Positions 59,831 to 61,691 of a stretch of DNA of 64,000 bases are shown one piece after another. The translations under genes were made by a program, and so were the position numbers. Numbering within the stretch: the first letter of the stretch is position 1; every line of letters starts with the position of its first letter. The notes under the pieces are model-generated. The model was given only the letters and a program-made list of their open reading frames with translations. It was not told the DNA's origin and did not search any database. The stretch comes from Euglena gracilis. Taxonomy: Eukaryota. Location: assembly GCA_039621445.1 (NCBI GenBank), contig CP154954.1, positions 46,789,847-46,853,846 of the forward strand. Direction: 5' to 3'.

Positions 59831-61691
59831 TGTAGGAGGTGTGGGCCTCACCACTCCCACAACCCCCTGGCGGCTGGCCCTTGGCGCCTGCAGGCCCTGC
59901 CACTGGCTGGGATCCATCAATTCACCCAGGGGGCCTGGCACCCACCTGGGACTTTCCTTGGAACTTTTCATGGTAATCCCACTTCCCAATTCCCAGCGCT
60001 GGCACAAATCAAGATACTTCCCAGAACTGAACAACCAAAGTCAAACTGAACATGCTGCTTGCCACTGTAAACACAAACACAGACAGAATTTTGTGTAATT
60101 CCTAATTCCTCTGCTGAAATCTTAATCTCTTTCCCAGCGCCCACACTCCCCTCCTCAAAAAGCTGCCCCGGGCAGCTAAACCTGCCTTCGGCAAAAAAGG
60201 CGCTGGGAGTTTTTTTTTTTTCTTTCCGTTCACGAACACAACCTTGAATCTTTCTTTCTGTCTGTCTGTTTTTTTTTTTGTGGGGCGGGGCGGGGGTCGA
60301 AGGCCGACCCTTAGGGGGGTCGGTCTCCTACAGCAGCAGGGGGGAGCAGCAGGCACCCGCACCGCCTTGGGCCGTTCTGGCGGGGGTTCCCCCCCAGAAC
60401 AGCCCAAAGATACCCCTTGGGCCGTCATCTCTGGATTTTTTTTTTGTTTTTTCCCCTCTTTTTTGCCCTTTTTTGCCCGCCCAGAGATGGGGGTCCAGGG
60501 GCTGGGGGGGGTCCTGGGGGGGGGGCTCGCAGGTGCAGCGGGAGGGGGTTACCGCGGGGAGGGCTTCGGCCACAGGCCTGGGAGGGGGGCCCAGCCCACG
60601 CCGTCCCGGCGGGCTTCGGCCACAACGCCTGAGGGCTTCGGCCCAGGCATACGGGAGGGGGACCCAGCCCACACCATCCCGGCGGGCTTCGGCCACAGCT
60701 GGTGAGGGCTTCGGCCCAGGGCATGCGGGAGGGGGACCCAGCCCACACCATCCCAGGCAGGGCTTCGGCCTCAGCCCCTCGGGGCCTCCTTCGCCTTCTG
60801 TCGGCGCTCCTTCCTTCTCCTTCCTCTTGACTTCTCCGGCGAGCCTCCGCCCTCGCCATGCCCCACTGGGGCCCAATGCCAACTTCCGTCATCACCATCT
60901 CCCGAATGTCCATCTCGACCATCTCCATGTCTGGAATGTCCATCTCGACCATCTCCATGTCTGGAATGTCCATCTCGCCCATCCGCATGTCTGGAATGTC
61001 CATCTCTGGCATTTCCATCCTGGGCATTCCCGTCTCTGGCATTTCCATCCTTGGCATTCGCATCTCTGGCATTTCCATCCTTGGCATTCCCGTCTCTGAC
61101 ATGTCCTTCCACATCATCCAGCCGCCTGGCATCAGAGGCCACCCTGCCATGGGCCCTGAGCCTGCCAGCAGCAGCTGCTGCTGCACGACTGGCACACCAC
61201 GAACAGCCACACTCTGCATCAAAACTTGAATAATACTCCATCAGGTTGATGTTCACTCCTTCAGTCCACGCCTTCTTGATGATCTCCTGCAGGCACATGC
61301 CATGCCTGATCCCGGCATGGCGGACAGCCGCCACGTGGCTGGTAGGCATGTTGTTAGACTGGCAGTGTTCAGTTTGTGTAGGGGGTGTGGGCCTCACCAC
61401 TCCCACAACCCCCTGGCGGCTGGCCCTTGGCGCCTGCAGGCCCTGCCACTGGCTGGGATCCATCAATTCACCCAGGGGGCCTGGCACCCACCTGGGACTT
61501 TCCTTGGAACTTTTCATGGTAATCCCACTTCCCAATTCCCAGCGCTGGCACAAATCAAGATACTTCCCAGAACTGAACAACCAAAGTCAAACTGAACATG
61601 CTGCTTGCCACTGTAAACACAAACACAGACAGAATTTTGTGTAATTCCTAATTCCTCTGCTGAAATCTTAATCTCTTTCCCAGCGCCCACA
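59831..61691 (-). mobile_element. Small non-autonomous LTR element 2 (TRIM/LARD-like), 1861 bp
   Basis: 315-bp TG...CA LTRs (59831-60145 and 61377-61691; one difference seen); 4-bp [21 protein letters not shown] at 60146-60156; removing it restores the CRE ORF. Confidence 0.92.
60771..61517 (-). CDS. Hypothetical 248-aa ORF of LTR element 2 (CxCxWC motif + RDGNA/RDGHSRHG repeats)
   Basis: ATG inside the LTR; open to 60771; 15/30-bp tandem repeats at ~60893-61105. Confidence 0.45.
   Translation of the reverse strand: MKSSKESPRWVPGPLGELMDPSQWQGLQAPRASRQGVVGVVRPTPPTQTEHCQSNNMPTSHVAAVRHAGIRHGMCLQEIIKKAWTEGVNINLMEYYSSFDAECGCSWCASRAAAAAAGRLRAHGRVASDARRLDDVEGHVRDGNAKDGNARDANAKDGNARDGNAQDGNARDGHSRHADGRDGHSRHGDGRDGHSRHGDGRDGHSGDGDDGSWHWAPVGHGEGGGSPEKSRGRRRKERRQKAKEAPRG

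Follow-up and report, generated by a model that had tools for sequence, protein, structure and literature searches.

We analysed a stretch of 64,000 nucleotides of the Euglena gracilis genome (GenBank assembly GCA_039621445.1, contig CP154954.1, positions 46,789,847 to 46,853,846 of the forward strand; hereafter the window, numbered from its first letter) that contains two long terminal repeat (LTR) retroelements on its minus strand, here called element 1 and element 2. [quoted passage not shown] The bases directly past its 5' LTR form a predicted primer-binding site (PBS; 61366-61376, minus strand CAAACTGAACA, offset 0 from the LTR end) that is the perfect complement of a proposed self-primer within the same LTR (61588-61598, minus strand TGTTCAGTTTG, LTR positions 94-104), and this second 11-mer would be the first 11 nt of the element's transcript. 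Read on the plus strand, 61366-61376 is TGTTCAGTTTG and 61588-61598 is CAAACTGAACA; the two are complementary at 11/11 positions, as had been reported in a preliminary description of this DNA made from its letters alone.

Element 2 is a genuine non-autonomous LTR retrotransposon in minus orientation. Its 5' LTR (61377-61691, reading TGTGGGCG...CCCCCTACA on the minus strand) and its 3' LTR (59831-60145, minus strand) are each 315 nt long, have TG..CA termini and are 99.68% identical, with a single difference between them (59837 A vs 61383 G). Four-bp target-site duplications (TSDs) of the sequence CCCT flank the element at 59827-59830 and 61692-61695, and the host reading frame is restored once element 2 and one CCCT are taken out, joining ..GWSFVPL to ILDCFGG... 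The single-copy empty site (..TTTGTGC+CCCTGATCC..) is present in a public sequencing run (X14, contig 16), and the uninterrupted site is found in another (X17) as well. A polypurine tract (PPT; GAGGAGGGGAG, 60146-60156, minus strand) adjoins the 3' LTR. Upstream of the proposed primer lies a block that is common to element 1 (TGTTTGTGT, 61617-61625, minus strand), which is a possible core promoter.

The minus strand directly past the 5' LTR of element 2 reads CAAACTGAACACTGCCAGTC, and TGG does not occur in the 25 nt past the LTR, which agrees with the earlier statement that a TGG-type PBS is lacking there. The duplex formed by the two 11-mers is perfect, contains no G-U pairs and is 11 bp exactly; a 12-nt extension of the complementarity is absent in element 2 and likewise in the pair of element 1 described below. 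The proposed-primer 11-mer recurs in the 3' LTR of element 2, at 60042-60052. A published rule (PMC6317226) defines putative self-primers by a region of the 5' LTR whose complement, at least 10 bp long, starts 0-5 bp past that LTR, and element 2 has 11 bp at offset 0. When the complement was anchored at the first base past the LTR, at least 11 nt were reached in 3 of 20000 shuffles of the element 2 LTR. When any start in a 40-nt zone round the LTR end was allowed, 11 nt were reached for element 2 in 23 of 3000 shuffles and for element 1 in 1 of 3000. In the window as a whole, an 11-mer with its complement among the 315 nt before it is found at 653 of 127348 positions (0.5%).

The element 2 family is very abundant in public sequencing data. 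The four runs used (X1, X14, X15 and X17) were all searched as assembled (Logan) contigs; X1 is DNA, X17 is a metatranscriptome and X15 is RNA only by guess. In X1, 1789 contigs match 61110-61800, with identities of at least 99% (715 contigs), 95-99% (665), 90-95% (320) and below 90% (89). Break points in these contigs pile up at 61375-61377, where 3, 7 and 10 contigs pass into unlike sequence, and at 61691/61692, where 18 contigs pass into unlike sequence and 21 into a consensus that matches the internal region on its PPT side. The pile-ups indicate that 61375-61377 and 61691/61692 are the family's own LTR borders and that the 11 nt past the 5' LTR lie outside 3' and solo LTRs. Because the LTR border of the family is at 61377, a primer must anneal exactly there. 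Among variants with a share of at least 5%, none is listed in either 11-mer in X1 (1789 contigs) or X14 (33 contigs), and 11 other positions of the element 2 LTR vary in these runs at that share. Both 11-mers are thus invariant within the family at the 5% level, so there is no within-family covariation to score.

One contig of X17 covers 61234-61558, and 61566-61685 is uncovered in this run. We considered this pattern as evidence for a transcription start and rejected it, since contig cover is thin and the U3 of the 3' LTR is missing too; family variants at 61562 and 61566 could also break an X17 contig there. At 61356, between the PBS and the second ATG, the window copy has an A and essentially all contigs of the four runs have a T, a private change of this copy. 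Nine X1 contigs leave the window copy at 61126 for one consensus, suggesting a subfamily with another C-terminus.

If element 2 self-primes, transcription would start at LTR position 94 (window position 61598) or beside it, and the first 11 nt of the RNA (UGUUCAGUUUG) would fold back onto the 11 nt past U5 (CAAACUGAACA, 61376-61366). RNase H of a partner element would then cut after nucleotide 11, the released 3'-OH would prime minus-strand DNA and the PBS would be recopied from the 11-nt primer in each cycle. Such recopying would explain why the duplex is perfect, lacks G-U pairs and is 11 bp exactly, with one end at the LTR border and the other at a promoter-like distance from the conserved block. 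The start site, the cleavage and the donor of the enzymes in this scheme are what we infer for element 2. Because the end of U5 is set by the start of minus-strand synthesis, the 3' end of a primer anneals directly past the LTR, give or take a few bases trimmed by integrase. With CAAACTGAACA as the site past the LTR, the primer of element 2 must end in ...UGUUCAGUUUG-3', which the CCA end of a tRNA cannot provide and which the element's own LTR supplies. A search of the window for a host RNA with an UGUUCAGUUUG-type end gave three matches with at most one mismatch, all of them element 2's own.

Element 2 is the innermost member of a three-deep retroelement nest (55933-62565), in which element 1 is outermost and a non-LTR retroelement lies between the two. 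The preliminary description had given the coordinates of the pairs in both LTR elements as we find them, and had overlooked that element 2 is nested inside a split element 1. Element 1 comprises a 3' LTR (55933-56232, minus strand, 300 nt, TGTTGGCG...GAGTTCA), an internal part (56233-57752, minus strand) and a 5' LTR in two minus-strand pieces separated by the non-LTR insertion. The downstream piece (57753-58007) is 98.8% identical to the 3' LTR over 256 nt; the upstream piece is at 62514-62565, LTR positions 1-54 matching 62567-62514 with 94.4% identity. Six nucleotides, TGTTTT, are common to both pieces and would be the TSD of the non-LTR retroelement insertion. A polypurine tract (GGGAGGGGAG) adjoins the 3' LTR of element 1 in the same place as in element 2. 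Under the boundary choices tried we found no clean 4-6-bp TSD for element 1, and a loose similarity of its flanks (TTCA..GTT.GC.AA) was judged unconvincing; the element is known to us as one copy, whose boundaries rest on its two repeats.

Element 1 carries a pair of its own. Its upstream arm (57907-57917, minus strand TGAACTCTTCA) is at LTR positions 136-146, and its downstream arm (57753-57763, minus strand TGAAGAGTTCA) is at LTR positions 290-300, the last 11 nt of the LTR, so placed that its end ..TTCA coincides with the LTR's terminal CA. On the plus strand 57753-57763 reads TGAACTCTTCA and 57907-57917 reads TGAAGAGTTCA, again complementary at 11/11 positions. Both the earlier claim of a different perfect 11-nt pair in this element and the caveat attached to it, that the 11-mer is present in both repeats, are borne out: the two 11-mers also occur in the other LTR copy, at 55933-55943 and 56087-56097. 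Since reverse transcription does not copy a PBS into the 3' LTR, a downstream arm that is present in both LTRs is not the PBS of a standard self-primer. By its sequence, then, element 1 misfits the standard self-priming model, and under the published rule its arm is at offset -11, within the LTR, with a TGG at offset 1.

That TGG opens a candidate tRNA-type PBS (57742-57751, minus strand, TGGTGAGGAC) located 1 nt (an A) past the 5' LTR. The corresponding tRNA 3' ends would be ...GUCCUCACCA / ...GTCCTCACCA, and by our own arithmetic a TGG would fall at offset 0-3 by chance in ~6% of cases. The bases past the 5' LTR of element 1 have no self-complement of at least 8 nt, and the only tRNA in the window did not match this candidate PBS, the best complement being 6 nt. 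The minimum free energy fold of element 1 closes on the 11-bp stem (z = -3.46), and 1 of 200 shuffles folds as well. The simplest reading of element 1 is that it would be tRNA-primed, with the 11-bp duplex closing an R-U5 domain beside the PBS. Of the earlier proposal that both elements self-prime, we accordingly retain the part on element 2, which has a complement at offset 0, no TGG and a family-wide border, and find the part on element 1, which has its downstream arm in both LTRs and a TGG next to it, unsupported as stated.

Elements 1 and 2 belong to distantly related families, and their LTRs have in common only the start TGTKGGCG, the PPT, TGTTTGTGT and TGAAAAGTTCCAAG, in the same order, with PPT and LTR start shared as GGAGGGGAG+TGTKGGCG. 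A MAFFT alignment of the two LTRs was poor and misplaced the shared blocks, and exact shared words and blastn were used instead. The upstream arm follows the start of TGTTTGTGT at a distance of 27 nt in element 2 and of 26 nt in element 1, so that the upstream half of the element 1 pair does sit at the equivalent position, as previously described. The longer motif that had been proposed there, TGTTTGTGT(A/T)TA..GG..A.CAG, holds in part: TGTTTGTGT(T/A)TA and the later CAG are common to both elements and the spacing in the middle is off by 1-2 nt. The arm sequences are wholly different between the elements, each with a perfect 11-nt partner at the LTR border. Judged from these sequences, the pairing is conserved by complete compensatory change between the element 1 and element 2 families, and, with different arms and perfect 11-nt partners at a fixed place, we regard chance as excluded. 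A block, AAACTGAA, is kept in both families; from this block and the alignment of the open reading frames (ORFs), the LTR border of element 1 is displaced downstream by 16-17 nt compared with that of element 2. The two families look like two states of one structure.

In both elements the ORF starts at an ATG inside the LTR. The element 2 ORF (60771-61517, minus strand) starts at 61517 (LTR position 175), reads through the PBS and has a conserved C-x-C-x2-C motif followed by tandem 15-nt repeats. The element 1 ORF (56959-57834, minus strand) starts at 57834 and has the Cys motif GCNCKWC, followed by a weak Dam-like NPPF domain. A Cys motif, S-x-x-x-x-C-x-C-x-W-C, is common to the two ORFs (hhalign 93.6%, E = 2e-07, 17 columns). 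The PBS of element 2 is coding, T/QTEH (Q-T-E-H), and TQTEQ stands at the aligned position of two protein relatives (P0003, P0006); the U5-coded stretch before TQTE is kept in the alignment with these relatives too (DPSQWQGLQAP vs DPSYWPSLQGP). This conservation of the U5-coded stretch and of TQTE shows that the element 2 ORF truly begins in the LTR.

A profile-free search of 1.84 billion protein representatives found four small relatives of the element 2 ORF domain (P0003-P0006) and no polyprotein. A further candidate relative, P0007 (2073 aa, with MopE repeats), was rejected as a spurious Cys-rich match. Pfam has no family for the element 2 ORF, residues 1-135 of the ORF found no match in a word-based search of 1161 candidates of near length, and an AlphaFold model of its 85-aa domain (mean pLDDT 70.6) had no PDB match at E <= 0.001. 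No reverse transcriptase (RT), integrase or protease domain of Pfam was found in the internal ORFs of elements 1 and 2. The C-terminal half of the element 2 ORF (60875-61100, minus strand) consists of units of the (D/N)G(N/H)A(R/K) type, encoded by a tandem repeat of 15/30 nt; a 73-nt direct repeat (60580-60720) lies downstream of it. In the element 1 ORF, a weak Dam-like N6-adenine methyltransferase stretch, WLNPPF, matches Pfam Dam at E = 0.0018, which is under the curated cut-off, and two proteins that are ~51% identical to this ORF (P0001 and P0002) have the same weak Dam match. To our knowledge, a methyltransferase-like domain is unusual for an LTR element without pol.

The alternative that survives best, unlikely as we consider it, is that the 11-mers of each pair form a conserved long-range RNA stem, joining the first bases of R to the border of U5 and leader, and that this stem is not the primer. 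A tRNA would then prime element 1 at TGGTGAGGAC, and a different host RNA that anneals to the same 11 nt, e.g. a tRNA fragment, would prime element 2. The stem would give form to the initiation complex or to the packaged RNA, in analogy to the U5-IR and U5-leader stems of retroviruses. A stem of this kind would suit the downstream arm of element 1, which lies within both LTRs with the TGG 1 nt past the 5' LTR, and a fold that closes on the stem as that of element 1 does, with z = -3.46 and 1 of 200 shuffles as stable. It would also suit AAACTGAA, which is present in both families and whose translation (TQTE/ETE) is present in four, as a host-constrained site would be, and half-tRNA primers are known (PMC6317226). 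However, the LTR of element 2 ends at the duplex and itself gives ...UGUUCAGUUUG-3' with 11/11 matches, whereas a purely structural stem could contain mismatches or G-U pairs and need not be 11 bp long in both families. Nor does the window contain a host RNA of the needed sequence; its lone tRNA does not pair.

It is improbable, in our estimation, that both elements self-prime, the 11-nt primer of element 1 being kept until the right end of the cDNA is finished, so that the PBS would come to lie in both LTRs and would supply the terminal CA for integrase. Such retention could account for a pair in element 1 that is perfect and 11 nt long and whose upstream arm occupies the same place in the LTR as that of element 2, for a downstream arm whose ..TTCA is the terminal CA of the LTR and for the lack of a self-complement of at least 8 nt for the bases past that LTR. 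But no such mechanism appears in the consulted parts of published accounts of self-priming, a TGG 1 nt past the LTR (~6% by chance at offset 0-3) is the classical alternative, and element 1 is a single copy without a clean TSD, with borders taken from two repeats. That both pairs arose by chance in DNA so rich in repeats is very improbable: for 0.5% of the positions in the window the 315 nt before them hold a partner of the 11-mer, and 23 of 3000 shuffles match element 2 in the 40-nt zone, but two independent families both pair at 11/11, with arms 27 and 26 nt from a shared motif and downstream arms adjoining the LTR end, and the anchored shuffles reach this in 3 of 20000 cases.

Several observations nevertheless weigh against self-priming by element 2. 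The equivalent duplex of element 1 is wholly within the LTR, so such a duplex can exist without being a PBS. The minimum free energy fold of 61598-61340 does not join the PBS to the first 11 nt but to a further copy of the arm, 9 nt long (TGTTCAGTT, 61571-61579, minus strand, LTR positions 113-121), which is a competing PBS partner, and this fold is no more stable than those of shuffles (z = -1.0; 34 of 200 fold as well). The single X15 contig reaches 61644, which is 46 nt upstream of the proposed start, and carries 61590 A>T, for which 61374 shows no listed change that would compensate; X1, X14, X15 and X17, all of them assembled contigs, list no molecule starts. As the PBS is coding (TQTE in P0003/P0006, ETE in element 1), part of its conservation may have other causes, or could come from a conserved host primer. 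Finally, neither the window nor the search of 1.84 billion proteins with the ORF domain yielded an autonomous partner, RT or RNase H through which the family could be tied to a clade of self-primers.

With self-priming of element 2 as the favoured reading, the two elements might also have captured a switch of primer, an idea that we put forward only tentatively. An 11-bp duplex, kept in place between the first bases of R and the border of U5, lies within the LTR in element 1, where it would be beside a tRNA-type site or would hold the PBS of an unremoved self-primer in both LTRs, and may have become the primer-PBS pair of element 2; or else the PBS may lie inside the LTR. In such a switch the LTR of element 2 would have become 16-17 nt shorter, as measured against the homologous AAACTGAA block.

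The non-LTR retroelement that hosts element 2 (58008-62513, plus strand) is 5'-truncated, sits in the 5' LTR of element 1 and has an RVT_1 domain (E = 4.9e-16); element 2 is inserted within its ORF. In translation this ORF (58008-59830 + 61696-61936, plus strand) reads RVT_1, then a Cys/His motif, CPRCETV..HLVCC, and then R-P-G-D...D-V-S-V. We take this tail (CCHC + PD..D/ExK-like) to resemble the restriction-like endonuclease of site-specific non-LTR elements. Its RT is the sole retroelement pol gene found in the window by Pfam, in a search that took in 38 of the 49 ORFs of at least 170 aa outside the region and left out 11 overlapping frames. The window has no further copies of either LTR family beyond the two LTR pairs.

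Scans of other sequence collections gave a metagenome locus (L001, one match to TGTTTGTGTN{70,100}TGAAAAGTTCCAAG) that is alike only at the motifs and was set aside as a chance match, and a viral-contig locus (L002, one match to GGAGGGGAGTGTKGGCG) that is alike only at the 17-mer and was likewise discarded; a scan of prokaryote genome contigs with a 20-nt string of LTR end plus PBS had 0 matches. The sole tRNA call in the window (40537-40610, plus strand) is a Gly tRNA with anticodon ACC according to ARAGORN, and it is also the only match of Rfam (tRNA, 42.9 bits, 40538-40609); given the unusual anticodon, it may be a tRNA-derived repeat or pseudogene. At 55040-55500 (plus strand) there is a tRNA-like B-box, GGTTCGAGTCC, with repeated GACGGACGGCTGG units around it (54860-55730) and no ARAGORN or Rfam call, which may be a SINE-like or tRNA-derived repeat. 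Families of short G-run/C-run hairpin repeats, e.g. ..GTGCCTGCCCAGGCAGGCAC.. between long G and C homopolymers, and CCAATTAGCCAATTGGGGGGGG units recur through the window (7943-8199, 11046-11331 and 53300-53840). Long tandem arrays at 24791-26060, 28802-29690 and 6645-7030, with 12-nt, 12/18-nt and 8-nt repeats, are open in several frames.

If element 2 self-primes, this mode of priming gains a further host and a very abundant family of non-autonomous elements, not a new mechanism. LTR finders that rely on a tRNA-matching PBS would miss or misorient such elements. The element 2 pair also gives a precise predicted transcript start, 61598. The sister element 1, with the same duplex but its downstream arm within the LTR beside a TGG, would bear on the switching of primer usage in LTR retroelements if this arrangement is true family-wide. 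Were a primer switch confirmed, the two elements would form a natural before-and-after pair for the origin of self-priming from tRNA priming, or would represent a self-priming variant with its PBS in the LTR.

Unlike Tf1, element 2 has no gag-pol, is 1.86 kb long and has one small ORF without a fold match, and the start of this ORF in the LTR makes the PBS coding. Tf1 has a TSD of 5 bp, unlike the 4 bp of element 2. In Tf1 the first 11 bases pair with the element's own PBS and RNase H cuts between bases 11 and 12 (PMC7175516), and the Tf1 duplex of 11 nt is equal in length to that of element 2. Self-priming has likewise been proposed for Tj1 (PMC4600332). Tf1/Tf2 of S. pombe and Tj1 of S. japonicus, which are self-primed Ty3/gypsy chromoviruses, are like element 2 in having no tRNA-type PBS and in having LTR-complementary bases past the 5' LTR. 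Self-priming is shown experimentally for Tf1 and is otherwise inferred from this signature in fungal, vertebrate and plant elements. For plants it is predicted in the Tcn1 clade (Ty3/gypsy) and the TAR lineage (Ty1/copia; PMC6317226), and the evidence for element 2 is of the same kind and follows the same rule. The Tcn1 and TAR elements are autonomous and placed by RT/integrase phylogeny, whereas element 2 has no polyprotein to place. Because self-priming is predicted in the Ty1/copia TAR lineage as well, the partner from the Tf1/chromovirus group that the preliminary description expected does not follow automatically.

Among short elements, element 2 has a conserved ORF, unlike those of the terminal-repeat retrotransposon in miniature (TRIM) type. 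It is presumably nearer to derivatives that are gag-only or like large retrotransposon derivatives (LARDs). Elements of the TRIM/LARD type are, like element 2, short, LTR-bounded, without pol, present in many copies and dependent on the enzymes of a partner, and for bivalve TRIM elements no clear priming mechanism is reported (PMC6934838). The literature found on the combination of self-priming with non-autonomous LTR elements describes no such case in the portions consulted. Skipper of dictyostelids lacks a TGG signature, as does element 2; its authors report a polypyrimidine stretch and no complementary region in the left LTR (PMC5006619), whereas element 2 has a perfect one. By every sequence criterion that could be tested, element 2 behaves like a Tf1-type self-primer.

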